A stretch of 64,000 bases of DNA, from assembly GCA_963796685.1 (NCBI GenBank), contig CAWCMR010000006.1, positions 160,001 to 224,000 on the forward strand. Direction: 5' to 3'. Made by a program: the position numbers and the translations under genes. The DNA comes from an uncultured delta proteobacterium (GTDB lineage: Bacteria > Myxococcota_A > Polyangia > Fen-1088). This document shows positions 32,785 to 57,400 of the stretch, piece after piece; the stretch's first letter is position 1; each line of letters starts with the position of its first letter. The notes beneath the pieces were generated by a model. It saw only the letters and a list, made by a program, of their open reading frames with translations, was not told the DNA's origin and searched no databases.

Positions 32785-34267
32785 ATGAAACTCGCGGCCA
32801 AACTGACAGCCTTCATCCTGACCGCCATGCTGCTGGTGTTCGCTGTGCGCGGCTACCAGGCCGCGCGCGCCCAGATGGCGGTCGCGGAACGGCGTTCGCG
32901 CGAGAATGCCCTGCTGATCGGGCGTGCATTGCGGCCGGCCTTGGTGGAGATCTGGGGCGGGGAGGGCCCTACCACGGCGCTGGAGATGCTTTCGTACGCG
33001 GCGGATCGCGTGCGACGGACCCAGCAGCTGGAATTGCGTTTCGTGCACTTGACCGATGGGCCCGGGATGGGGTCGCATCCGCTCGTCCATCTCGATCGTC
33101 TTGCTGGCCTCGGCCCCGACGAGGAACGATCCTTCGTGGAGAAGGTCGCAGGGAACGAAACCCTGCTTACGTACTTGCCCGTGAGGGTCAAGGGCGAGAC
33201 GGTTGGCGCCCTGGAGGTCGCCGGATCTCTCACCGAGCGCGACAAGGAGTTCCGCGCCGAAATCATGCAAATCCTGGGACGCACGGCCTTGGCAGCACTT
33301 GGCGCCTTCGTGGCGGTGGGGGTGGCCGGGGTTCTGCTTGTCGGCCGGCCCATGCGCCGTTTGGTGGCCAAGGCCCGGCGCATTGGTGCCGGTGACCTGA
33401 CGGGGCCGCTCGACCTGAAGCAACGAGACGAGGTGGGCGAGCTGGCCTTGGAAATCAATCAGATGTGCGAGCGCTTGGCTGCAGCTCAGGCACGGGTGGA
33501 AGAAGAAACCACCCGCCGGCTGGTCGAGTCCGAGCAACTCCGCCATGCGGATCGCCTGACGACGGTGGGCAAGCTGGCCTCGGGCGTGGCCCACGAGCTG
33601 GGCACGCCGCTGAACGTGGTCTCGGGGCGAGCCAAGATGATCGTTCGCGGGCAGGTTACCGGCGCCGCGGTGGTGGAAAACGCGCAAGCCATCGCCGATC
33701 AAGCGGAGCGGATGACCAACATCATCAAGCAATTGCTGGGCTTCGCGCGCCGGAGACAGCCCCAGCACAGAAAGGAGAGCCTGCGCGGGGTGGTCGAACG
33801 GACGTTGGCGCTGCTTGGGCCTATGGCCGAGAAGTCCCAGGTCGCCTTCGTGCCCAGCCACGGCGAGCCGGAGCCCTTCGCGGACATCGACGTTTCCCTG
33901 ATCGAGCAGGCTCTCACCAACCTGGTGGTGAACGCCATACAAGCGATGCCCATGGGCGGCTCGCTCACGGTTCGCTCGTGCGAAGAGGTCGTTTCGCCGC
34001 CCGCGGGGGCGCCCGATTCATCCACCGGCAGCTACGCATGCCTGCACGTCGAGGACACGGGAATGGGGATGACCAGCGAGCAACTTCGTCACGCGTTCGA
34101 GCCCTTCTTCACCACCAAGGATGTGGGAAGCGGTACCGGCCTCGGGCTGTCGGTCGCCCACGGCATCGTACGCGATCACGGGGGCTGGATCGCCGCCACC
34201 AGCACGCTGGACAAAGGAAGTCGATTCTCCATCTATCTGCCCTCGGTCCACAAAGCGGAGGGAACCC

Positions 34268-34275
<8 letters not shown>
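32785..34275 (+). CDS. Sensor histidine kinase (HAMP, NtrB-like)
   Basis: Two TM helices, HAMP, LASGVAHELGTPLN, NLVVNAIQAM, FEPFFTTK..G.GTGLGL. Confidence 0.95.
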
Positions 34276-35628
<1,353 letters not shown>

Positions 35629-35629
<1 letters not shown>

Positions 35630-39223: not shown

Positions 39224-42178
39224 ATGTTGCTCGATCGTCGCAGACTCTCTCGAACGCAATTGCTCCCCCTCGGAGCCCTAGCAACCCTTGCCGTCTTTGC
39301 CGTCTTCACTGGCTGTGGCCAGCACGAAGACCCTGCTGCCGGCTCCGGCGGCGCGGACTTGACCGTCAAGACGCTGCTGAGCACCGCTAACGTCACCGCC
39401 GTAACCGCCACGATTTCCGGCCCCGCCCTCTCCACGCCCCGCTCCGTCGCGCTTTCTTCGAGCACCACCGGAACCTGGGGCGCTCTCATCGGCGCGCTTC
39501 CAGCCGGCACCGGCTACGTCTTCAACGTCAGCGCCACCGACGTGAGCAGCGCCATACAGTACGCCGGCGTCGCCTCCAACGTCACCATCGTCCCGAATGT
39601 GGTGACCAGTGTCGTCATCACGGCCCAGCAGGCCGCGGCGCCGACGCCTTTCCAGAACTCGCTCCCCGTGATCGACGCGTTCGTCCTCTCGTCGAGCAAC
39701 GTCGCTCCGGGCGCCACCATCACCGCCGCGGTCACGGCCCACGATCCGGACGCTGGCGACACCCTCACGTACGCCTGGACGGTCAGTCCCAAGGGGAGTG
39801 TCTTCTCGGCCCCGACCGCCGCGACCACCAACTGGACCGCGCCCACCACGGCCGGCGCGTACACGCTCACCATCGCCGTCACCGATAACCACGGCGGGAC
39901 CGCCTCGGCCTCGGTCGTGGTGAACGTCTCGACCGGTAACGGCGTGGGCCAAGCCTCCCTCTCCGTCAACCTCAACACCTGGCCGGTGGTGACCAACATG
40001 GTCGCGGCTCCGAGCTACCTCGTCCTTGGCAAGCCGACCAAGCTGACCGCGGTTACCAGCGATGCGGACGGCGACCCTCTGACCTACGCCTGGACCAGCA
40101 CCTGCGCCGCCGGCTCGTTCAGCGCCGCCATGGCCCCCGTCACCACCTTCACCTTGCCCGCTGGCGACCCCGACACCAGCTGCTCGTTCAGCGTCGCCGT
40201 CAGCGACGGCCGTGGTGGCTCGACCACCGGTCAGGCCACCCTGCCCGTCGGCGCTCCTACTGCGGTCAGCTCTCCAGTCTTCACGGGCAGCTCGCAATCG
40301 CCCAACGTCGTGACCCCTGGCATGAGCGTGACCTTCCAGGTCACCGCCTCGGATCCGCAATCGAGCGCTCTCACCTTCACCTGGATTGCTCTTACGGGCA
40401 CCGTCTCGGGCCAGACCAACACTGCCAATTCGTCGCAGATCACCTGGACCGCCCCGGCCGGGACCTCGTCTAGCTCCACGGTATCCGCCGTGGCGACCGA
40501 TGCCCTCGGCCTGACCGTTGAGCTCGACTTCGCGGTCACGGCTTGCGCGGCCGCATTGAAGTGGCCCTACCTCATCTACCCCGGCCAGAACTCGACGATG
40601 CAGGTGCTCTGGCAGGACAACAACGCCGGCGAGTCGAATAGCGTTCGCTGGGGTACCGACACGAGCTACGGCCTCGGCAGCGCGGTCGCGCCCGAGTTCG
40701 GCGACAAGCAGCACTCGTACACCATCACCGGGCTGCAGCCGGACACGAAGTACTACTACCAGGTGACCGACACGTCCGTCCCGGCCTGCGTCTACGGCCA
40801 GGGCTCGTTCATCACCGCGCCGCTGGCCGACGCGACGTCCATCCGCTTCATCGGCCAGGGCGACTCTCGCAGCCAGCCGTTCGCGCTCGACAACCTGATG
40901 CAGGCGCTCACCCAGTTCACCTCCCAGCCCGAAAACGCGGACTACCAGCGCTTCGCCATCCACAACGGCGACTGGGTCAGCACCGACGGCGAGAGCTACT
41001 GGACGAGCCAATGGTTCGATCCCACCAAGAAGGACATCGTCGCGTACACGGCCAATACGCCCATCGACGGCGTCAAGGGCAACCACGACAACGCTTCGGG
41101 CTACAGCACCACTTTCCCGAAGTACTTCCCCTTCCCGTACCCGAACGCGACGCTCAAGGCTGGGACCGGGACCGGGACCAGCACTCCGGCCGCGTACAAC
41201 AACCTCTACTGGTCCATGGACTACGGCCCGGTCCACCTCACCTACGTCGACGAGTACTCGAGCTTTGCGCCTGGTTCGCAGCAGTACACCTGGCTCACGA
41301 ACGACCTCGCCACCACCACCAAGCCTTGGAAGATCCTCGTCTATCACGAGCCGGCGTACTCCGCGGGCTCGGACGGCGACAACACCTCCGCCCAAACCTA
41401 CCTCGAGCCGCTCATCACCCAGTATGGCGTGGACCTCGTCTTCGCCGGTCACAGCCACAACTACGCTCGTACCGGTGCCTATAACCTGACCCAGGCCCAG
41501 GGCGACCACATCGCCCTCAACGTCCCGCACATCACCAGCGGCGGCGGCGGCGCGCCGGTCTATCAGCCCGACATGACCAACACCCACAGCAAGTACCCGC
41601 ACGTCATCACGGCCTGGCCTGCCTTCGAGTTCGTGACCTTCGACGTGAAGCCGACCACGCTCACCATGACCGCCTACCAGGTCAACAACGTGAGCTTGAC
41701 GGCCATCATGACGCCGGCCGCGCTGACCCTCTCGAAGATCGAGACCATCGTGCTCAATCACTTCAGCAACGTCACGCCGCAGTTCACCGCGACGACGAGC
41801 GCGTTCGTGCAGGATCCGACGACCGGTCACTACATGGGCAACCTGACCCTCACCAACAATGGTACGGATGTTGCCGGAACCGTCGACGTCGTGCTGGACG
41901 GCATCCTGAACCTCGCCGGGATTGGCAATGCAGACAACGAGTACAGCACCGCGAGCCCGCCGCTCGCTTCGAAGATCGCCCAGAACACCGGTTTGGCGAC
42001 GACCGTCACGGTGGTCGGTGCGACCGGCTCTAACAACGGCGAGCCGATGATCCGGGCCACCAGCAGCGGCGTCCTGGCCAGCGGCCAGATCGTCGTTCCG
42101 CTGGAGCTCGACATGGGTACCGGTGGCATCGATCCGAACGCCACCAGCTTCTTCACCCCAGTGGTCCTGAAGGAGTAA
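39224..42178 (+). CDS. Lipoprotein with Ig-like/PKD-type repeats fused to a purple-acid-phosphatase-like metallophosphoesterase
   Basis: GAAGGAG RBS, FTGC lipobox, three A.D.D/Q.D/S.LTY/F.W repeats, FN3-like H...ITGLQPDTKYYYQV, calcineurin-like motifs GDSR, HNGD, GNHD, YHEP, GHSHNY.R. Confidence 0.9.
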   Translation: MLLDRRRLSRTQLLPLGALATLAVFAVFTGCGQHEDPAAGSGGADLTVKTLLSTANVTAVTATISGPALSTPRSVALSSSTTGTWGALIGALPAGTGYVFNVSATDVSSAIQYAGVASNVTIVPNVVTSVVITAQQAAAPTPFQNSLPVIDAFVLSSSNVAPGATITAAVTAHDPDAGDTLTYAWTVSPKGSVFSAPTAATTNWTAPTTAGAYTLTIAVTDNHGGTASASVVVNVSTGNGVGQASLSVNLNTWPVVTNMVAAPSYLVLGKPTKLTAVTSDADGDPLTYAWTSTCAAGSFSAAMAPVTTFTLPAGDPDTSCSFSVAVSDGRGGSTTGQATLPVGAPTAVSSPVFTGSSQSPNVVTPGMSVTFQVTASDPQSSALTFTWIALTGTVSGQTNTANSSQITWTAPAGTSSSSTVSAVATDALGLTVELDFAVTACAAALKWPYLIYPGQNSTMQVLWQDNNAGESNSVRWGTDTSYGLGSAVAPEFGDKQHSYTITGLQPDTKYYYQVTDTSVPACVYGQGSFITAPLADATSIRFIGQGDSRSQPFALDNLMQALTQFTSQPENADYQRFAIHNGDWVSTDGESYWTSQWFDPTKKDIVAYTANTPIDGVKGNHDNASGYSTTFPKYFPFPYPNATLKAGTGTGTSTPAAYNNLYWSMDYGPVHLTYVDEYSSFAPGSQQYTWLTNDLATTTKPWKILVYHEPAYSAGSDGDNTSAQTYLEPLITQYGVDLVFAGHSHNYARTGAYNLTQAQGDHIALNVPHITSGGGGAPVYQPDMTNTHSKYPHVITAWPAFEFVTFDVKPTTLTMTAYQVNNVSLTAIMTPAALTLSKIETIVLNHFSNVTPQFTATTSAFVQDPTTGHYMGNLTLTNNGTDVAGTVDVVLDGILNLAGIGNADNEYSTASPPLASKIAQNTGLATTVTVVGATGSNNGEPMIRATSSGVLASGQIVVPLELDMGTGGIDPNATSFFTPVVLKE

Positions 42179-42188
42179 GTTCGCTAAC

Positions 42189-42228
42189 GGGACGACGGGG
42201 GCCTTCGGGCCCCCGTTTCCCATTTTTT
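42189..42228 (+). terminator. Rho-independent terminator / stabilising hairpin
   Basis: ACGGGGGCC-TTCG-GGCCCCCGT stem with C(UUCG)G loop, outer GGGA/TCCC pairs, followed by ATTTTTT. Confidence 0.85.
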
Positions 42229-42238
42229 GTGATTGGAA

Positions 42239-43411
42239 ATGCGCAACCTTTTCGCCATTGCAATAACCGCAACAACCCTCGGCGTGCTGCCGCTGGCGCC
42301 TAGCGCCGCGCATGCTGAGTCGGACGACCCGACCACAAGCGCCCTGAAGCAGACAGCGCAGCAGGCCTATCTCGAAAAGCGCTTTGACCAGGCCATCGCC
42401 CTCGACCTCGAAATCACGCAACACCCCGAGAGCCAAGTGCGCCGCTACGCCGTGCAGATGTTGGGGACGCTGTACGAAGACAACGTCGTCGATGTCGCCG
42501 CCGCTATTCGCTGGGATCGGGAATTCCTGGAGAAGTACGCCGATGTGCGCCAGGTAGCCTTCTACCGGCAGAAGATCGCCACGCTCGAGCAGGTGCTTCC
42601 GCAGAAGGACGCCTTCGCAACTTACCAAAAGATTCGCTTCGCCAACCAGGGCGACGAGGTGCAGGTGCAGCAGCTCGAGGCCCTGCTGAAGGAACATCCC
42701 GACTTCTTCCTCAAGGACAGGGTCCAGGCGGAGCTGGGCTACGCCTACGCCCGCATGGACAAGCACAAGCAGAGTTATCTCGCGTTCCAGGCGCTGTCAC
42801 AGAGCGGAAAGCCAATGTCGGCCGAGCACATGAAGGCCTACCAGGCGGCCGCCCTGCATTTCAACGAGACCTCGCGCTGGGGCTTCGTCGTGTTGGGCAT
42901 CGTGCTCGGGCTGTGGGGCGTGGTGCTCCTCGGCAAGCCGTGGAGGCGGATCACCCGACGCGCGCTCTGGAAGCTTCTCGCCATTGCTTTGGCCTGGGTT
43001 GCGCTGAACGTGGCCCGCATGCCAGGCTTCTACACCATCGAGACAACGGGCTATCCGGTCGTCATTCCCGACACAGTCGTCTACACAGGCATCGCGCTCA
43101 ACCTGACCGTTATCGTGTGGCTCTTCCTATTGAGACGTGGATCGTTCTGGGGGCGCTGGCCGAAGATCGTGCGCCTCGTCGCCAGCCCGCTTCTCGTGGT
43201 CGTGATGACCACGTCCGTCCTCTATCTGCTCGTGATCCGGCAGCCGAACGGGCCGGAGATCGTCGACGTCTTCCCCATGGTGTACCATCGCTGGGTCGAG
43301 GATATGAGACGCCCCAAAGGTCCGGTCGTGCCCAGCGCCGAAGCGCACGAGAAGAAAGCCGTGGGCGGCCCGCCGACCGTACCGGCCATCGCACATAAGG
43401 GGGAACCATGA
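42239..43411 (+). CDS. Secreted TPR-like domain followed by four TM helices; unknown function
   Basis: Signal peptide (AHA), alpha-helical TPR-like repeats, four hydrophobic segments. Stop overlaps the next ATG (ATGA). Confidence 0.8.
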   Translation: MRNLFAIAITATTLGVLPLAPSAAHAESDDPTTSALKQTAQQAYLEKRFDQAIALDLEITQHPESQVRRYAVQMLGTLYEDNVVDVAAAIRWDREFLEKYADVRQVAFYRQKIATLEQVLPQKDAFATYQKIRFANQGDEVQVQQLEALLKEHPDFFLKDRVQAELGYAYARMDKHKQSYLAFQALSQSGKPMSAEHMKAYQAAALHFNETSRWGFVVLGIVLGLWGVVLLGKPWRRITRRALWKLLAIALAWVALNVARMPGFYTIETTGYPVVIPDTVVYTGIALNLTVIVWLFLLRRGSFWGRWPKIVRLVASPLLVVVMTTSVLYLLVIRQPNGPEIVDVFPMVYHRWVEDMRRPKGPVVPSAEAHEKKAVGGPPTVPAIAHKGEP

Positions 43412-43620
43412 CGGGAAAAATCCTGAAAGTGAAGACCGGCTACAACCCGAACTCCAGCAGCATCGGGGTCGACATGGTCGCCTTCTTCACCATTGGTGCG
43501 GGAATGACGGTGCTCTTCAACCTTATCGCGACCTTCATTGACGGCATCCACGGCAAGCAGCGACCGGGCGAGGCCGAGCAAGGCAAGACGGAAGCGACGA
43601 CGGAGGCGAAACCGGCATGA
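43408..43620 (+). CDS. 70-aa membrane-anchored peptide with KILKVKTGYNPNSSS motif; candidate radical SAM substrate
   Basis: AAGGGGGA RBS, ATGA overlaps on both sides, GC3-rich codons, one hydrophobic segment after the NSSS motif. Confidence 0.75.
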   Translation: MTGKILKVKTGYNPNSSSIGVDMVAFFTIGAGMTVLFNLIATFIDGIHGKQRPGEAEQGKTEATTEAKPA

Positions 43621-44771
43621 GCGCGATCCGACATCGCTTCGAGTCCTTCGGCGGCATCCTGGCCATGGAAGATCCGCCGATGCTCGTACACGTGGACCGC
43701 GACTTCATGCGCAGCCTGGGCCATTCGGCCTGCTCGGCCTGGGAAGAACCGGAGACGCGGCTCCTCAGCGCACCGCTGGAGGTTCACCTTGCGGTGACCA
43801 ACACCTGCTCGCAGCGCTGCGGCCACTGCTACATGGACTCGGGGCCAAGCGACGCTGGCGAGCTGTCGTCGGCGGAGCTCCGGCGAGCCATCGACCTGCT
43901 CGCGGACATGGGCGTGTTCCACGTTGCGCTCGGGGGCGGAGAGGCCCTGGAGCGGCCCGACTTCTTCGAGCTCGCCGCCTATGCGCGCGACCGCGGCATG
44001 GTCCCCAACTTGACCACCAATGGAGCTCTTCTGACCCGCGAGACGGCCGAGCGATGCCGTATCTTTGGTCAGGTCAACGTCAGCATCGACTCCCTCGATT
44101 CCCTCGATGGGGGCGCGCAGGCCGCGCGGCTCCGCGCGGTGGACCTTTTGCGGGAAGCTGGGATCCGCGTCGGGATCAATTGCGTCGTGACCCGAGAAGG
44201 CCTCGATGGCCTGGCGAACCTCATCGCGTTCGCGAAGGAGCGAGGGCTTGTCGACGTGGAGCTCCTCCGGCTCAAGCCCTCGGGCCGCGGGAAAAAGGAC
44301 TACTTCGAGCAGCGACTGACCCGGGCTCAGAACGAGAATTTCTTCCCGTTCATCCGGGACCTGTCCTTGAAGCACGGCGGCTTCCCGGTGAAGATCGACT
44401 GTTCGTTCGTTCCGATGTTCTGCTGGCACCGACCGGACAAGAGCCTCATGGAAAAGTTCTCGGTCTACGGGTGCGAGGCCGGCAATGTCCTTCTCGGGGT
44501 GCGTTCCGACGGCAGGTTTGCCGGCTGCTCCTTTCTGTCGGGCGAGGAATCCATCTTCGACTTGCCGGAGCTTTGGCGGACCTCGAAGCACCTCGGCCGC
44601 CTGCGTGGCTTCATCGAGCGCGCGCCGGAGCCGTGTCGCTCCTGCGACTACTTGGATATCTGCAAGGGGGGCTGCCGCGCGGTGGCCGCCTTCGTCGCTG
44701 GCGATGCCTTCGCTCCGGATCCCGAGTGTCCGTTCGCGGTGACGATGAGCGAGCGCAGCGTGGGATCGTGA
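43617..44771 (+). CDS. Radical SAM protein with SPASM domain
   Basis: CSQRCGHC (CxxxCxxC), GGGE, TTNG, VSID; SPASM CEAG...C then CxxCxxxxxCxGGC...C. Confidence 0.95.
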   Translation: MSAIRHRFESFGGILAMEDPPMLVHVDRDFMRSLGHSACSAWEEPETRLLSAPLEVHLAVTNTCSQRCGHCYMDSGPSDAGELSSAELRRAIDLLADMGVFHVALGGGEALERPDFFELAAYARDRGMVPNLTTNGALLTRETAERCRIFGQVNVSIDSLDSLDGGAQAARLRAVDLLREAGIRVGINCVVTREGLDGLANLIAFAKERGLVDVELLRLKPSGRGKKDYFEQRLTRAQNENFFPFIRDLSLKHGGFPVKIDCSFVPMFCWHRPDKSLMEKFSVYGCEAGNVLLGVRSDGRFAGCSFLSGEESIFDLPELWRTSKHLGRLRGFIERAPEPCRSCDYLDICKGGCRAVAAFVAGDAFAPDPECPFAVTMSERSVGS

Positions 44772-44773
44772 GC

Positions 44774-46039
44774 ATGCGCAGACGACTGGTTGCGGCCTTT
44801 CTGGCAGCGGTAGCGCTGACGGGAGGCGCGCCAGCATTCGCACACGATTTGCCGATGGGAGGATCGCGCTGGTCCTTCGGTCGGAACCGGATCGTCGCCA
44901 ACATCGACCTCGGCCCCTCGCTGCTGCAGTCGATCAAGGGCATCCATGAGGGGGGCTATCCAGTCGGCAGCCTGTCGGACGAGCAGATGCACCAAGTGGC
45001 GATCGAAATCCTCCAGCCGTATCTCGATGAGAAGCTGTCGGTCACCGAGGACGGCAAGGCGTACCCGGTGAAGGTCGATAGGCTGGTGAATAGCGGGAAC
45101 GTCTACACGATCTGGATCTCGGTCGAGCGGATCCCGCTCGACCTTGGGCGGCCCGTCACCATCGATTACAAGCTGCTCTTCGACGAGACCCAGAACGCGC
45201 ACCTGAACCTCGCCTACGGATACGTGTCCGAAGCCACCGGAGACGCTCTGAAGTCGGTGTTCGACTACTCACCACCCGCGATGCAGTACACGTTCGAGTC
45301 GTCCGCGCACACTTGGACGGTGATCCCGCCGGACATTGCAAAGACCGGGGCGGCGAGCACTGCTATCCCGTCGAGAGGTCGGCCCAGCGTCACGCTGCCC
45401 GGAGCAAAGGCGGGCACGTCGGCGACCGCGCAGGCGCCGACGCCGATATCGCCTCGCTCGGGGTGGAGGGAGATCCTCGCCAATGTCGGACGCTTCGTGC
45501 TGCTCGGCATCGAGCACATCCTGACCGGGTACGACCACATCGCATTCCTCTTGGCGCTCGTGCTCGTCGCGCCGTCGTTCAAGGCCGTCCTGCCCATCAT
45601 CACCGCCTTCACGGCAGCCCACAGCATCACGCTGCTGTTGGCGGCCCTGGGCGTGGTCAGGCTTGATTCCAGGCTGGTCGAGTCGGCCATCGCGGTCTCC
45701 ATCTGCTACGTCGCCGTCGAAAACCTGTTTCGGAAGAAAATCACACACCGTTGGCTCGTGACTTTCTGCTTCGGGCTCGTCCACGGCTTCGGGTTCGCGA
45801 GCGTCCTGCAGACCCTGATCGTCGGCAGGGCGAATCTCGTCAGCTCGGTCGTCTCGTTCAACGTCGGCGTGGAGCTCGGGCAGCTCATGATCTTCGCCGC
45901 GTTGCTCCCATTGCTGCGCCTCCTCGCCGCGCTCATCGCGCCCCGGAAGATCACCATCGCCGCCTCGGCCGCCATCGGCCTGCTGGGCTTCATCTGGGTC
46001 CTCGAGCGGGGCTTCGACTTGAAGTTCCTGTGGCTGTGA
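44774..46039 (+). CDS. HupE/UreJ-family membrane protein with N-terminal periplasmic domain
   Basis: Signal ending AFA-H; GIEHILTGYDHIAFL, TAFTAAHSITL, VESAIA.SI, FGLVHGFGFA, FNVGVELGQ. Alternative GTG start at 44768 overlaps the rSAM stop. Confidence 0.9.
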   Translation: MRRRLVAAFLAAVALTGGAPAFAHDLPMGGSRWSFGRNRIVANIDLGPSLLQSIKGIHEGGYPVGSLSDEQMHQVAIEILQPYLDEKLSVTEDGKAYPVKVDRLVNSGNVYTIWISVERIPLDLGRPVTIDYKLLFDETQNAHLNLAYGYVSEATGDALKSVFDYSPPAMQYTFESSAHTWTVIPPDIAKTGAASTAIPSRGRPSVTLPGAKAGTSATAQAPTPISPRSGWREILANVGRFVLLGIEHILTGYDHIAFLLALVLVAPSFKAVLPIITAFTAAHSITLLLAALGVVRLDSRLVESAIAVSICYVAVENLFRKKITHRWLVTFCFGLVHGFGFASVLQTLIVGRANLVSSVVSFNVGVELGQLMIFAALLPLLRLLAALIAPRKITIAASAAIGLLGFIWVLERGFDLKFLWL

Positions 46040-46082
46040 GCTGGCGATCGACATCTGCTGTTTATCTGATATGCTCATTGGC

Positions 46083-46538
46083 ATGAGCGCTCACGCCGAA
46101 ACCCTGACCGACTTTCTCCGCCAGCCGAAGCCTATCCTGAAGAAGCTGGCTAGGGAGGATGTTGTCCTGCACCGGCGTGGGGCTGTGGCCCTCCGTCTAT
46201 CCTTGGACACACGATCCTCCGCATCTTCTGCAGGCACCGAGATTGCGGCCAGTCTGCTTGCGGACCTGGTGAATGTTCCTCAGGTTCCGGATTCCCTGGG
46301 CATCCTCCTGGCAGCCCGCTTCCCTTGGATGAAGTTTCTATCCAAGGACGCCAAGCAGGCGTTCGTGTACGAGTTCATCGAGACCGTGCAGGCGTGTGCC
46401 GCCGTTGGAAACAGCGCCGCACTGAACGAGGTCGTTCACGCCTGGAAATCCACGGCTGCGATCTATGCAGACCCCAAGCTGGCGGCGGACCTGAGCCGTT
46501 CCCTTCTCGGTACCCGGGCCAAGGTTCCACGTCCCTGA
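46083..46538 (+). CDS. Putative antitoxin (Phd-like N-terminus + DUF6247-like C-terminus)
   Basis: TDFLRQPK...DVVL.RR, FPW..FL......F..E, W..TA.IYADP. TGATG overlap with the next gene. Confidence 0.65.
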   Translation: MSAHAETLTDFLRQPKPILKKLAREDVVLHRRGAVALRLSLDTRSSASSAGTEIAASLLADLVNVPQVPDSLGILLAARFPWMKFLSKDAKQAFVYEFIETVQACAAVGNSAALNEVVHAWKSTAAIYADPKLAADLSRSLLGTRAKVPRP

Positions 46539-49019: not shown

Positions 49020-49253
49020 ATGGCAACGTACGAGTGCATCTCTGTGGACCCGGCGCAGATGGGCGGTACTCCCCGTATCAGGCGCCTGTGTATCCCGGTG
49101 GCCACGGTCGTTGGAATGGCGGCTGAGGGAATGGCGACCGACGAGATTCTGGCCGCCTATCCCGACCTCGAACGCGAGGACATCGCCGAGTCCTTGCGCT
49201 ACGCAGCCGAGGCCGTCCGAGAACGAGACCTGCCACTTCGGACCGTCGCCTGA
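49020..49253 (+). CDS. DUF433-family antitoxin-like protein (no partner toxin seen)
   Basis: ISVDP..MGG.P.IR...IPV..V......G....EIL..YPDLE.EDI...L.YAA. GGGAG RBS. Confidence 0.88.
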   Translation: MATYECISVDPAQMGGTPRIRRLCIPVATVVGMAAEGMATDEILAAYPDLEREDIAESLRYAAEAVRERDLPLRTVA

Positions 49254-54435: not shown

Positions 54436-57400
54436 TCACGCTCCCGCCTCCGACACCAACGCCGCCACTGCCCAGTCGTAGTCTGGGCGTGTCCCATCCC
54501 AAAGCGGCATGTTGCTATCCGCCCCGATGTTCAGCCCGCGATCCTCGGCCCATTCCTGCAAGAAGACCATCGCATCTTCGCTGACCTCGCGCGCGGGTAC
54601 CGATGGTAATTCGCCTCCGTCGGGTGCCCGAAAGCACAAATCCCCGTCTGCCGTTCGCTCGACCGACCAGCCGCCTTCGTGGACCAGATGGTGGTGGTGC
54701 GAGCACAGCAAGGAAAGGTTGTCCAAGCTGGTTTCGCCCCCGTGCAACCAGTGCTGGATGTGGTGGCCGTGCAGGAATAGGTTGTGGGTGCAGCCGGGGA
54801 AGGCGCAACCACGGTCGCGCAGGAGGAGGGCGCGGCGAATTGAGGTGGGAATGGTGCGGGTGCGGCGGCCGGGGAGCCCCTCACCCGGCGCACTTCGCGC
54901 GCCGACCTCTCCCCGCTGCGCGGGGCGAGGTGATTCTACGGCCACGAGGCCACAGTCGCAGGCCACGCGCCGGAGCGGTCGGGTGGCCCTGGGCGGTTGT
55001 CCGCCCAGGGCTCCCACAGATCCGGACGTGCAGATTTCCCGCATCCGGCTCCTCAAGCTACGGTTTCGTTGCGGGTCGGTAGACGCTGTGGACGATTCGG
55101 ATCGGCGGCAGCGGATACCGCTGCAGCAGAGCACAGAAGCGTTCCCACACCATCTTTGCTCTTGCTGACCGACGGTTGAGCCAGTAGCGCCACACGCGCT
55201 CGACCTCGTGCAGAAAGCGACTGAGACAGCGTGCGTTTCCGGTGATTCCGAAATACGCATAGTGTCCGCGAAGCTTCCGCGAAAGGTCGATGTGCTGTGC
55301 GGCGACGGCGTCGTGCCGATGGGTCCGACACCAGTCAGCGATTCGAGAGAGCGCTCGACAAAAGCGGCTCGACGAGGTTTTGCGCTGGATGACTGCGGCT
55401 CCCTTGCGGGACTTACCCCAGTACCAGGTGAAGCCCAGCATGTCGAAAGTCTCAGGCGCACTCGGGTTCGCAGACGACTGCGACCTGCGCGGCCTTCGAA
55501 AGTCGAGCATCCTGGTTTTCTCTGGATGCAGGGCGAGGCCATACTTGGCAAACCGTTTGCCGAGTACATCCAACACTCTGCGGGCATCGTCCTCGTTTCC
55601 AACGACGATGGCCACGTCATCTGCGTACCGGACCATGAATGCCTGTGACCGAAGTCTGAGCTTCACTTCCCGAGCAAACCACGTATCCAGGACCTCGTGC
55701 AGGTAGATGTTCGCGAGTAGCGGTGAGACGACACCTCCCTGGGGCGTTCCGCCTTCAGGGTGGTACACGCTGCCGTCCTCTAGAACTCCTGCTTTGAGCC
55801 ACTTGTCGATTGCTCGACGGAGCACTCCGTCTCGCACCCTTCTGTCGAGAAAGCCTCGGAGATGTCCATGGTCGACGGTGTCGAAGTAGCTCTTGATGTC
55901 TACCTCAATCACCCAGCCACCGCCCATGTTCATCAGACCCTGCCAAAGCGTTGCCAGCGCTTGATGCGCCGACCGGCCCGGTCGGAAGCCATACGAGCAG
56001 GCTAGAAAGTCCTGCTCATAAACCGCCTCCAGCACCATCGTGACCGCCCTTTGAAGCACTTTGTCTTCGAAGGTCGGTATCCCTATGGGGCGGGTCGACT
56101 TACCATCCCCCTTCGGGATATGCACCCGTCGAACCGGAGGCGCCTGGTACGTGCCCGACTTGAACCGGTCTAGCAGCAACCGCAGATTTCCCTGCAGATT
56201 CGCCGCGTACCCGGTCGCATCCTGGCCGTCTACTCCAGTCGCCCCATCCTTTCGGGTCAGCCGAAACGCTTGGTCTAATAGTTCCAGGTCGATGTGATGG
56301 GCAAGCGTCGTGAACACCATGTCCGGTGATTCCTTCGCCAGCTTTGCTATCCGCTGTAGTTTCGTTGAGACGTTTTCGGGACTCGACGTTCCCTTCATCT
56401 TTCTCTCCAGCCGTTCCGTAGTTTGGCTCCCCCTTCCCTCCACGGGGTCCCTCGGGTCGGTTCCCCCGCTTCATCGGTACTACGAGAAAGCTCCGACTTC
56501 CTTTCGCCCTTCCCGCCGCGCTTCGTTTCCTTCGCTTGGCGGTACCACTGCGCGCTCATTCGTTCGCTCCCCATCGTGTCGAGCGCGTCGTGATGGGGCC
56601 TGGGCTCTTGGCTTCCGCCGGGTGCCCTTCCCTTGTTGTCAGTGGAGACGACAGGACCTCCCAGGTTCCTGTGGAACCCCTGTGCATGCGCGCCACGTTC
56701 TTCGACCCCGGCGGGACCTCAACGCCTAGCCATTGCGGCATCGCAGGTGCTGACGCCGCTCAGAAAACCACGGCATCTCCCGCAAGCAGTTTCATTTCGA
56801 GGCTCTATCGCGCGGCCCTCATGCTCCCTGTGTACGCTTCGCAGTCGGGGTTACCCCCGAACCACGCAACACTCGGTTCCGGCTGGTTGCCAGCCTTTGC
56901 CGGGCGGGCTTGTCCCGCCGGGTTCCTTCGCAAGGTTTCAATCATGGTTCTACATGTCATCCTCCTTGCCCAGGCTTTGCCTGGCGCACTTTCCGCGGAA
57001 ACGCCTGTGCCGTCGTCCAGGGTTCCGGCCAGCGCGCCGTCGGGTGCAAGCGGATCTTGATCGACGTGAAGCATGACCTGGAAGCGCTCGCCGCCGTTGC
57101 CGTTGCCTGCGTTGCCGGCCAGGTAGCTTTCGGCCAGGGCGACCATGCCGTCGGCGCGGGATGGCCGCTTGGGGTCGGGCTGCTCTATTCTGTGCTCGTC
57201 AACCTTGTGCTCGAGTCCGCGAGCCCGGTCGAGCGCGCCCAGCACGAGCTCGGCTTCGTCGGGCGTTAGAACAATTTCGAGCTTGACCATGCCGCCAACC
57301 AAGTCGCGGCGGCGCACGGAGCGCTCGGGTGGCGGGAGGGCGTTGTCAGCGGTCATGGCAATGCGGTAGCCACGGCACAGGCGTTCGAGCTGGGCGCCGG

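Follow-up and report, generated by a model that had tools for sequence, protein, structure and literature searches.

Radical S-adenosylmethionine (SAM) enzymes with a SPASM domain, when paired with a short peptide, have been a recurrent source of new chemistry and new cofactors, among them pyrroloquinoline quinone (PQQ), mycofactocin and the gamma subunit of quinohemoprotein amine dehydrogenase (QHNDH). In the MftC/MftA and PqqE/PqqA pairs the precursor is very short and strongly conserved, and its product serves the producer's own enzymes. Anaerobic sulfatase-maturating enzymes are SPASM enzymes that act on a Ser or Cys residue of an envelope-bound polypeptide, the sulfatase, before its export. 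Here we describe a gene block from an uncultured delta proteobacterium, located in a stretch of 64,000 nucleotides (assembly GCA_963796685.1, contig CAWCMR010000006.1, positions 160,001 to 224,000; hereafter the window). The block encodes a tetratricopeptide repeat (TPR) protein with four transmembrane segments (4-TM; the protein is called TPRm below), a small single-pass mini-protein, a radical SAM/SPASM enzyme (rSAM) and a HupE/UreJ-type permease (HupE-like), and is preceded by a phosphoesterase gene. Its gene structure, conservation, co-occurrence and family placement were established directly. From these features we propose, with moderate confidence, that the region may be an undescribed peptide-maturation module, in which rSAM would modify the head of the mini-protein and the latter would be retained in the membrane with TPRm.

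Three further systems invite comparison. The SPASM enzyme QhpD acts in the cytoplasm on QhpC, the small subunit of an extracytoplasmic enzyme; QhpC is held through an N-terminal leader and carries Cys-to-Asp/Glu thioethers and a Trp quinone, and the qhp operon further supplies QhpE as leader protease and QhpF as ABC exporter (PMC7876137). TMcins are ribosomally made and post-translationally altered peptides (RiPPs) of Gram-positive bacteria, secreted as pore-forming antimicrobials after leader removal and disulfide formation; their transmembrane-helix precursor sits in the producer's membrane with an uncharacterized membrane 'escort' (bioRxiv 10.64898/2026.05.31.729130). The 'anglerase'-HupE/UreJ-2 metal permeases combine a signal peptide, a mature N-terminal His, a non-cytoplasmic domain, a linker and a PF13795 domain, and the accessible part of the account names no radical SAM gene or peptide partner for them (PMC12537917). 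A search of the main texts of the literature found no description of a system of mini-protein, rSAM and TPRm.

By open reading frame (ORF) analysis, five genes lie on the forward strand of the window within 39224-46039 (Table 1). The original prediction had chained the four genes at 42239-46039 through overlapping stop and start codons of the ATGA/GTGA type, and direct reading of the sequence bore out both the overlaps and the coordinates. The TGA stop of the TPRm gene (43409-43411) overlaps the mini-protein ATG at 43408, which is preceded by a strong Shine-Dalgarno sequence, AAGGGGG. The mini-protein stop overlaps the rSAM ATG at 43617, and the rSAM stop overlaps the GTG of the HupE-like gene at 44768; this GTG, from which the length of the HupE-like protein is counted, lies inside a longer open frame. 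The chained genes are in this way translationally coupled. A terminator-like hairpin separates the phosphoesterase gene from the TPRm gene. The window genome is a 26-contig assembly, 88.6% complete, and its closest public relatives are metagenome-assembled genomes labelled uncultured Myxococcales or 'delta proteobacterium'.

Table 1. Coordinates of the features discussed, in the window unless another locus is named
Feature	Position	Strand	Basis
Lipoprotein-type secreted metallophosphoesterase, 984 aa	39224..42178	+	Pfam, PDB comparison, tblastn
Terminator-like G+C-rich hairpin and T run	42194..42217	+	10 pairs, 8 of them G-C, then TCCCATTTTT
TPRm: signal peptide, TPR domain and 4-TM, 390 aa	42239..43411 (frame also from 42233)	+	Family profile
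Mini-protein, single-pass, presumed rSAM substrate, 70 aa	43408..43620	+	Homologues, codon pattern
Mini-protein head motif GKILKVKTGYNPNSSSIG, residues 3-20	43414..43467	+	Logo
Mini-protein hydrophobic, transmembrane-like segment	43468..43548	+	Segment length in representatives
Radical SAM/SPASM enzyme with 47-residue N-terminal extension, 384 aa	43617..44771	+	PF04055, cysteines
HupE-like: signal peptide, N-terminal-His periplasmic domain and HupE/UreJ-2 permease, 423 aa	44768..46039	+	PF13795
155-aa ORF after the HupE-like gene	46071-46538	+	
HAMP histidine kinase	32785-34275	+	
Sigma-54-dependent response regulator	34121-35629	+	
DUF433 small protein	49020-49253	+	E 6.4e-19
STAND NTPase, 1189 aa	49745-53314	+	nSTAND1, E 2.9e-19
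Group II intron	54978-56912	-	D1-D4 model RF02005, 143.8 bits at 56696-56912; Intron_gpII, 46.4 bits at 54978-55053
c-di-GMP-I riboswitch, locus L026	3298-3373		
c-di-GMP-I riboswitch, locus L029	3298-3373		
c-di-GMP-I riboswitch, locus L034	9596-9670		
c-di-GMP-I riboswitch, locus L049	10222-10296		

The window mini-protein reads MTGKILKVKTGYNPNSSSIG, followed by a hydrophobic stretch and a charged tail. This anatomy of leader, core, hydrophobic helix and charged tail had been proposed for the window; it was read there again, and the representatives agree with it in their logo and hydrophobic segment. A word-based search found 68 homologues of 50-120 residues. A profile search of 1.84 billion representatives returned 520 clusters (defined at 50% identity) at E<=1e-3 and 110 at E<=1e-10, and none of Pfam (2025 copy), NCBIfam 20.0 and PADLOC holds a model for the mini-protein. 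Among 149 of the 150 best-scoring representatives, NPN was present in 148 and replaced by NAN in the remaining one. The logo (n=148) is (K/R)G(R/K)(I/V)L(R/K/A)(V/I/L)KxG(Y136/F8/L2/W1/H1)NPNSS(148)S(147)(I/V/L/M)G(144), with G at -10 in 143, L at -7 in 145, K/R at -4 and G at -2 in all 148, Y/F at -1 in 144, N-P-N-S-S in 148, the third S in 147 and G at +7 in 144; a Cys occurs near the head in just 3 of them. Near-absolute constraint is confined to this head of about 19 residues, which ends four residues before the helix. The hydrophobic segment has a median length of 26 (interquartile range 24-28; 147 representatives), and the charged tail, with a median of 23 residues, is variable and the least conserved part of the mini-protein. 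To our knowledge, the head is among the most conserved short motifs in pairs of a radical SAM enzyme and a peptide. Constraint this extreme is typical of cofactor precursors.

Codon usage shows at which level this constraint acts. In 56 distinct DNA copies (loci and window), the third codon positions of the motif vary, with an entropy of 0.9-1.8 bits, while first and second positions are fixed; selection therefore acts at the level of the protein rather than of an RNA or DNA element. The first serine is encoded by TCN throughout, the second by AGY in 54 of the 56 copies and the third by either TCN or AGY, a pattern indicating that the three serines have not been interchanged since the origin of the family. 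A quinone or metal ligand based on the Tyr was considered and rejected: at position -1 the 148 representatives include 8 with F, 2 with L and one each with W and H, so the hydroxyl is not essential and chemistry at a Tyr hydroxyl is unlikely. Copies from the layout designated type C below read LAVK[WL]G[YLM]NPNSSSLG, and many of these have L or M at -1 with W at -3.

Fused forms of the mini-protein are probably artefacts or rarities. Only 3 of 7999 longer candidates matched the profile: one with a low-complexity N-terminus, one that may be a read-through after a lipoprotein-like domain and one phosphoesterase-like fusion. The last of these, P0191 (255 aa, on a 1.5-kb contig), joins a type C head and part of the helix to a metallophosphoesterase-like domain with GHTH; it can be explained by an artefactual frameshift or, alternatively, by a rare natural fusion tying the mini-protein to the phosphoesterase theme. 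The phosphoesterase of close relatives ends in GGINPNTTSFF (L006 4092-4154, reverse strand; L024 6636-6767, forward strand) and that of the window in GGIDPNATSFF (about 42100-42178), a loose echo of GYNPNSSSIG in the mini-protein. This likeness is not conserved across type A and is probably due to chance.

We fetched 44 loci with the mini-protein profile from contigs representing one genome per species, and compared them by tblastn and ORF clustering, with Pfam and NCBIfam applied to representatives; clusters were considered if found in at least 4 of 45 sources (the 44 loci and the window). One carrier is a cultured isolate, Geomesophilobacter sediminis Red875. Type A, seen in 29 loci and the window, occurs in Myxococcota, Nitrospirota/Thermodesulfovibrionales, Geobacter relatives, Syntrophobacter and Acidobacteriota, and has the order (optional genes in parentheses) (pentapeptide-repeat protein) - phosphoesterase - (NF038129 PEP-CTERM protein) - TPR/4-TM - peptide - rSAM - (205-aa membrane protein) - HupE-like - (TonB-dependent receptor, ExbB, ExbD, TonB). 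Type B (15 loci in Planctomycetota, Cytophagia and others) has the order c8 - c12 - peptide 1 - TlpA/ResA-like thioredoxin - phosphoesterase-like - peptide 2 - TPR/4-TM (c13) - rSAM - c16. Within this group, loci L055 and L061 read rSAM - peptide - TPR/membrane (c35). Type C, found through an rSAM search of relatives, reads TPR/4-TM - peptide - rSAM; about 10-20 kb was fetched around each of 4 such loci (extended type C).

In every fetched locus uncut by a contig end, the genes for the mini-protein, TPRm and rSAM are contiguous. They occur in four gene orders (TPRm-peptide-rSAM, peptide-TPRm-rSAM, rSAM-peptide-TPRm and type C) and span Myxococcota, Nitrospirota, Geobacter relatives, Syntrophobacter, Acidobacteriota, Planctomycetota, Cytophagia, Fibrobacterota and Raymondbacteria. 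The recurring core is TPRm, mini-protein and rSAM; the phosphoesterase joins it in two layouts and the HupE-like protein in only one. The original prediction had also noted that protease and ABC exporter genes are absent, and this agrees with the wider comparison, where no such family was found among the clusters present in at least 4 of the 45 sources (c10 was left unscanned and reads by eye as the plug of a TonB-dependent receptor; c11, c12, c14 and c16 gave no Pfam match).

The association of rSAM with the mini-protein extends beyond the fetched loci. None of the 44 genomes seeded with the mini-protein is without an rSAM orthologue, which lies in the locus itself in 39 and at another site in 5. 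Each of these five genomes has exactly one orthologue (E<=1e-148), which in 3 cases adjoins a second mini-protein copy, and the five loci without rSAM are on short contigs, except for L052, which has a different arrangement. When loci were seeded with rSAM, the mini-protein was found within 1.5 kb in 18 of 30. The original prediction would have fallen had the peptide not been conserved beside the enzyme; it is conserved there or within the same genome. Three genomes of the same genus that lack an rSAM orthologue (74%, 84% and 94% complete) also lack the mini-protein. The linkage is therefore strong, not absolute, and is loosest in type C.

Orthologues of rSAM are carried by 8 of 13 genomes of the window's genus and by 108 of 301 genomes sampled from its class, one each (E<=1e-70), and are concentrated by family (44/44, 21/23 and 14/15 genomes). 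The type A rSAM of the window is 66-73% identical to those of other phyla and only 42-45% identical to type C enzymes of its own class, and the type A block evidently moves horizontally as a unit.

The enzyme itself is well defined at the family level. It matched Pfam Radical_SAM (PF04055) with 68.1 bits against a cut-off of 29.5 (E 1.4e-18), and C64, C68 and C71 of the CxxxCxxC motif are invariant in 41 orthologues, as is the GGGE SAM motif. The full SPASM cysteine set that had been claimed is likewise invariant in the 41 orthologues (C286, C304, C340, C343, C349, C353 and C371, with G299 and an additional C262), in the spacing Cx9-15Gx4C ... Cx2Cx5Cx3C ... C. Full-length alignment to SPASM families extends to residue 375; the Pfam SPASM model gave no reported match on rSAM at E<=0.01. 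The placement of rSAM outside known cofactor families also held up, as all of its NCBIfam matches fell far below curated cut-offs: the best was MftC (TIGR03962; 156.8 against 265), with NirJ2 at 135.4/500, GeoRSP at 128.3/400, AhbD at 123.1/500 and PqqE (TIGR02109) at 99/381.35 (score/cut-off), and the three other heme or heme d1 families (NirJ, NirJ1, AhbC), taken as a set, giving 118/515, 109.2/650 and 100.5/650. The nearest PDB entries are PqqE (6c8v, 3.7e-26), SkfB and SuiB, and the nearest characterized relatives are mostly peptide-modifying (MftC, GeoRSP, StsB, PqqE, SkfB and SuiB). Homologues carry generic names at source, and a protein atlas gave for one homologue only generic radical SAM clusters, mostly from Myxococcota. 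A known defence system was rejected as an identity for the locus, since the PADLOC matches to rSAM are only to a generic viperin-like radical SAM core.

The N-terminal extension, RFESFGGIL...MLVHVDRDFMRSLG...W, is conserved as strongly as the rSAM core, with R7, E9, F11, G12, G13, P20, L23 and W42 as its conserved residues. A PqqD-family domain (PF05402) had a single match in the window genome, in an unrelated gene on contig C11 and not at this locus.

TPRm could be assigned only at the family level. The window protein alone gave no Pfam or NCBIfam match and no detectable TPR. The family profile (A3) matched consensus TPR proteins in the PDB with an E of 5.5e-35, as well as OGT, CpoB and MamA, over about residues 31-208 of the profile, and a type B homologue matched TPR_1 at 2.4e-9. 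TPRm proteins are just 12-18% identical across layouts; comparison of profiles by hhalign showed them to be homologous (A with B 98.2%, A with C 94.5%, B with C 96.2% and B with c35 94.7%). No residue of the membrane part is invariant. A sortase- or protease-like enzyme was accordingly rejected, as the membrane part lacks an invariant polar residue, and for the same reason we read TPRm as a scaffold or receptor.

The phosphoesterase begins with a lipoprotein-type signal peptide and has PKD/Ig domains, an N-domain of the purple acid phosphatase (PAP) type, a Metallophos domain and, C-terminally, a further domain of about 200 aa; its Pfam matches were K319L-like_PKD, Pur_ac_phosph_N (38.5 bits against 30) and Metallophos (50.8 against 21.5). 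Plant and bacterial PAPs were the best PDB matches to its C-terminal 559 residues (6git, E 1.4e-17). Set against the PAP metal-ligand motifs (seven ligands, including the Fe(III) tyrosinate), it keeps GD/GDW/GNHD/H/GHSH and lacks the tyrosinate Tyr; both the window protein and 11 type A homologues have GDWVS as motif II, without a Tyr. Type A phosphoesterases in general keep GD, GDW, GNH(D/E), H and GH(S/N)H and lack this Tyr. To judge by these motifs, the protein is PAP-like and not a canonical PAP. Its gene was found by tblastn in 26 of the 29 type A loci; that of L041 appeared as a fragment through ORF clustering only, and contig ends truncate L023 and L036. Ten of the 15 type B loci contain a distant version (22-27% identity), and in this layout c8 unites a PAP N-domain with TPR and a membrane domain and so joins the phosphoesterase and TPR/membrane themes.

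The assignment of the fourth chained gene to HupE/UreJ stood: residues 243-387 matched HupE_UreJ_2 (PF13795) with 160.4 bits against 24.5. The gene is present in 27 of the 29 fetched type A loci and in the window. In all 18 full-length homologues the predicted cleavage site, read by eye, is A-H, giving a mature N-terminal His, and none of 5 stand-alone paralogues of the N-domain has A-H. The N-domain, for which a relation to Ang-1 or Ang-2 was considered, gave no Pfam match at E<=10 and, with profile A4, no PDB chain at E<=1 in a PDB copy that may not hold the Ang structure. In the features of signal peptide, N-terminal His and a domain fused to PF13795, the protein shares the architecture of the anglerase-HupE/UreJ-2 permeases described in PMC12537917, as far as that source sets it out.

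Other genes accompany the block in some lineages. In several type A loci the cluster is followed by genes for a TonB-dependent receptor, ExbB, ExbD and TonB (c5 in 13 sources, c17 in 6, c18 in 4 and c15 in 6). Of 15 loci of relatives that were scanned, four (L026, L029, L034 and L049) have a cyclic di-GMP (c-di-GMP)-I riboswitch ahead of the phosphoesterase sub-operon, which suggests a role linked to surface or biofilm in those lineages. Upstream of the window phosphoesterase gene no credible riboswitch was found, and none at the gathering level anywhere in the window.

In the proposed mechanism, cytoplasmic rSAM would bind the short, basic, beta-strand-like leader ILKVK of the mini-protein and would chemically modify one or more NPNSSS residues at the cytoplasmic face. 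The modified mini-protein would be neither cut out nor exported, and would stay in the inner membrane as a small subunit of TPRm. The presence in type B of two peptides and two TPR-membrane proteins (c8 and c13) for one rSAM fits such a one-to-one pairing of peptide and TPRm. In the window layout, the membrane module may serve an envelope metal/phosphate unit made up of the PAP-like phosphoesterase and the His1-domain-HupE/UreJ-2 metal permease; in relatives, this unit would also include the TonB-dependent receptor/ExbBD/TonB genes, with a c-di-GMP riboswitch in four loci. We infer in this way the role of the mini-protein as the rSAM substrate, the site of modification, the topology and the physiological role. 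The original prediction of NSSS as the modified motif and of a metal-binding or cofactor product has the same standing. Metal/phosphate acquisition and envelope metalloenzyme maturation are candidates for the output of type A, and this is the least certain part of the proposal. A more specific version, which we consider unlikely, is that rSAM builds a new protein-derived cofactor or cross-link in the NPNSSS loop, creating a membrane-tethered catalytic, redox or metal/phosphate site that needs TPRm.

The described systems resemble this arrangement in part. MftC is the best-scoring family and PqqE the best structure for rSAM, and the precursor is again short and conserved; unlike in those systems, the scores lie far below the cut-offs, no PqqD or MftB chaperone adjoins, and the mini-protein is membrane-embedded and lacks the C-terminal GVY or ExxxY core of MftA and PqqA. 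A serine-rich target is plausible for rSAM. The match to the sulfatase maturases (PDB 4k36-4k39) is weak (E 8e-12) and covers the radical SAM core only, and the neighbourhood has neither a (C/S)xPxR motif nor a sulfatase gene. The logic resembles that of QhpD and QhpC as far as PMC7876137 presents it, a SPASM enzyme being paired with a small polypeptide that is no free natural product. It differs in that the mini-protein head has no Cys, that the mini-protein has a transmembrane-like helix whereas QhpC is soluble, and that the cluster holds no leader protease or exporter. The TMcin escort is comparable in idea to TPRm, and the TMcins illustrate that embedding in the membrane does not prevent the processing of a RiPP precursor; they have no sequence relation to the mini-protein, and the part of that preprint available mentions no radical SAM enzyme. 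What is unusual here for a radical SAM/SPASM-peptide pair is the membrane-embedded precursor, the dedicated TPRm and the lack of processing and export genes.

Several observations weigh against modification of the mini-protein by rSAM as set out above. The original prediction had likened RFESFGGIL to an MftB-like recognition element, and this claim failed in sequence comparisons: residues 1-65 of rSAM from 4 orthologues gave no Pfam match at E<=10, hhalign of the extension, which has only 47 residues, against an alignment of 20 PqqD domains gave a probability of 0.4%, and no RiPP recognition element (RRE) was recognized. The families that score next after MftC include the tetrapyrrole enzymes NirJ2, AhbD and NirJ, and the substrate of rSAM may be something other than a peptide. 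Twelve of the 30 rSAM-seeded loci have no mini-protein within 1.5 kb, 2 of them being cut by contig ends; among 6 non-adjacent genomes searched, 4 have the mini-protein on another contig and in 2 (88% and 91% complete) none was found. The charges flanking the helix point both ways: within the 15 residues nearest to it, the C side is the more basic one in 129 of 147 representatives, whereas the N-tail taken as a whole is the more basic in 100 of the 147; a head-outside topology would need modification before membrane insertion. As to the companions, the original prediction was right that TPRm and the upstream phosphoesterase travel with the pair, whereas HupE/UreJ is not the core partner it was taken for, since none of the 15 type B loci and none of the 4 extended type C loci has it. 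The phosphoesterase is found in 0 of the 4 extended type C loci as well, and its type B relatives have altered metal motifs, GDND and SW-H, so that hydrolytic activity may not be a conserved property. With both proteins restricted to certain layouts, the physiological role may differ between layouts.

Some of these points would be met by a mini-protein that acts as an adaptor, its head docking on the 47-residue extension and tethering rSAM to TPRm, with the substrate elsewhere. That substrate might be an envelope protein that has yet to be exported (the phosphoesterase or the HupE N-domain), by analogy with sulfatases and their anaerobic maturases, or a small molecule, for instance a tetrapyrrole, as with NirJ and AhbD. 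We think this possible, if somewhat improbable. An extension conserved like the catalytic core, yet without an RRE recognizable by sequence, would suit it, as would the tetrapyrrole families among the top matches, the lack of a conserved protease or exporter, the retention of rSAM in 2 of the 6 searched genomes where no mini-protein was found, and the single rSAM serving two peptide/TPRm pairs in type B. An interface alone, however, seldom fixes 10 consecutive residues, including three serines, over 148 clusters (50% identity). The phosphoesterase and HupE-like protein are missing from type C, so neither can be a universal substrate, and no heme or siroheme genes were found among the conserved neighbours.

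If the pair were instead a conventional RiPP system, a housekeeping protease or signal peptidase would free the head or tail as a bioactive or metal-binding peptide, perhaps released to a TonB-dependent receptor in the manner of a chalkophore or siderophore. The small peptide beside a SPASM enzyme and the TonB-system genes after the cluster in several type A loci are in keeping with this, and in many type A mini-proteins an A-K-A-like signal-peptidase motif, read by eye, closes the hydrophobic stretch. Against it, all layouts lack a conserved protease or exporter, conservation within the mini-protein is lowest in the tail, the head is invariant across phyla, unlike antimicrobial cores, and the TonB-system genes were not found in the window or in types B and C; we regard release as quite doubtful. 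That the adjacency is inherited synteny with no functional link, or that the small ORF is not expressed, is scarcely credible. Kin do share gene order, and much of the type C sample was drawn from one class, but the trio occurs in different orders in at least 8 phylum-level groups, the codon pattern reveals selection on the protein, the start and stop codons overlap behind a strong Shine-Dalgarno sequence, and the type A rSAM is closer to enzymes of other phyla than to type C of its own class. Modification of a membrane-retained mini-protein is the reading that we prefer on this balance.

A sign of transcription of the block comes from contigs of four peat or permafrost RNA libraries, which are 88-99% alike to the region and are thus sequences of relatives. 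Some of them bridge the junctions of TPRm with the mini-protein (43303-43494, library X16) and of the mini-protein with rSAM (43578-43838, library X17), a weak hint that the block genes are transcribed, as DNA carry-over is possible and depth cannot rank genes. One contig of library X16 fits the window only up to 42216 and then continues in a T-rich tail unlike the window, faintly hinting that the hairpin is a termination signal. In the four libraries, contig depth was higher over the phosphoesterase gene and much of 42188-46039 was uncovered in three runs, an observation that carries no weight. The share of the region's words was small in every sequencing run, 0.23 at best, and we draw no claim about habitat or strain. 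A sigma-54 promoter was considered and set aside: the window has 86 matches against 66.6 expected, and none lies upstream of the phosphoesterase or TPRm genes on the forward strand. A histidine kinase and a sigma-54-dependent response regulator are encoded about 3.6 kb 5' of the window phosphoesterase gene (Table 1), and a sigma-54 activator adjoins the TPR gene in type C loci.

A few neighbours were seen in particular layouts. In 11 type A loci, an NF038129-family PEP-CTERM protein (209 aa; L031 6148-6777; 99.9 bits against 65) follows the phosphoesterase gene, which points to exosortase-dependent surface sorting nearby. The periplasmic protein c12 of type B (279 aa; L057 356-1195), encoded 5' of peptide 1, faintly resembles an FEA1-related iron-assimilation lipoprotein (E 2.2e-4), a match that is far below the cut-off and serves as a lead only. 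The ORF that follows the HupE-like gene in the window (Table 1) is common to L023 and L024 of the 44 loci by ORF clustering, and its 5' part was found by tblastn in the same-genus loci L002, L004 and L006 and was absent in L005; it belongs to no family in Pfam, NCBIfam or PADLOC. Directly 3' of rSAM in 16 of 24 type C loci is a PF03618 kinase/pyrophosphorylase of the PSRP type (303 bits; L068 1566-2384 and L066 8691-9587, both on the reverse strand), the L068 copy overlapping rSAM by 4 nt. A Ser/Thr kinase adjoining a system with an SSS motif is intriguing. It was rejected as a partner: it was absent from the window genome and from G037 in our searches and is single-copy where found (G031, G032 and G227), and its position is probably inherited synteny. 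Elsewhere in the window lie a group II intron and a STAND NTPase gene with a DUF433 gene upstream (Table 1); the latter stretch may be a conflict-system neighbourhood unrelated to the mini-protein block.

The mini-protein family is not rare, with 520 clusters in the profile search and rSAM in over a third of the sampled genomes of the window's class, and the cultured carrier G. sediminis Red875 makes the system experimentally approachable. If the product is a membrane-bound cofactor, the system would be a new setting for peptide-derived cofactors, and the first case of one for which an integral membrane protein is both the site of assembly and the lasting carrier. Anaerobic bacteria of soil and peat would then require an NPNSSS cofactor for the maturation or supply of their envelope metalloenzymes. 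Such a product would also explain a widespread envelope gene set, comprising the PAP-like phosphoesterase, the His1-domain HupE permease, TonB uptake and c-di-GMP riboswitches, in bacteria of peat, permafrost and soil.

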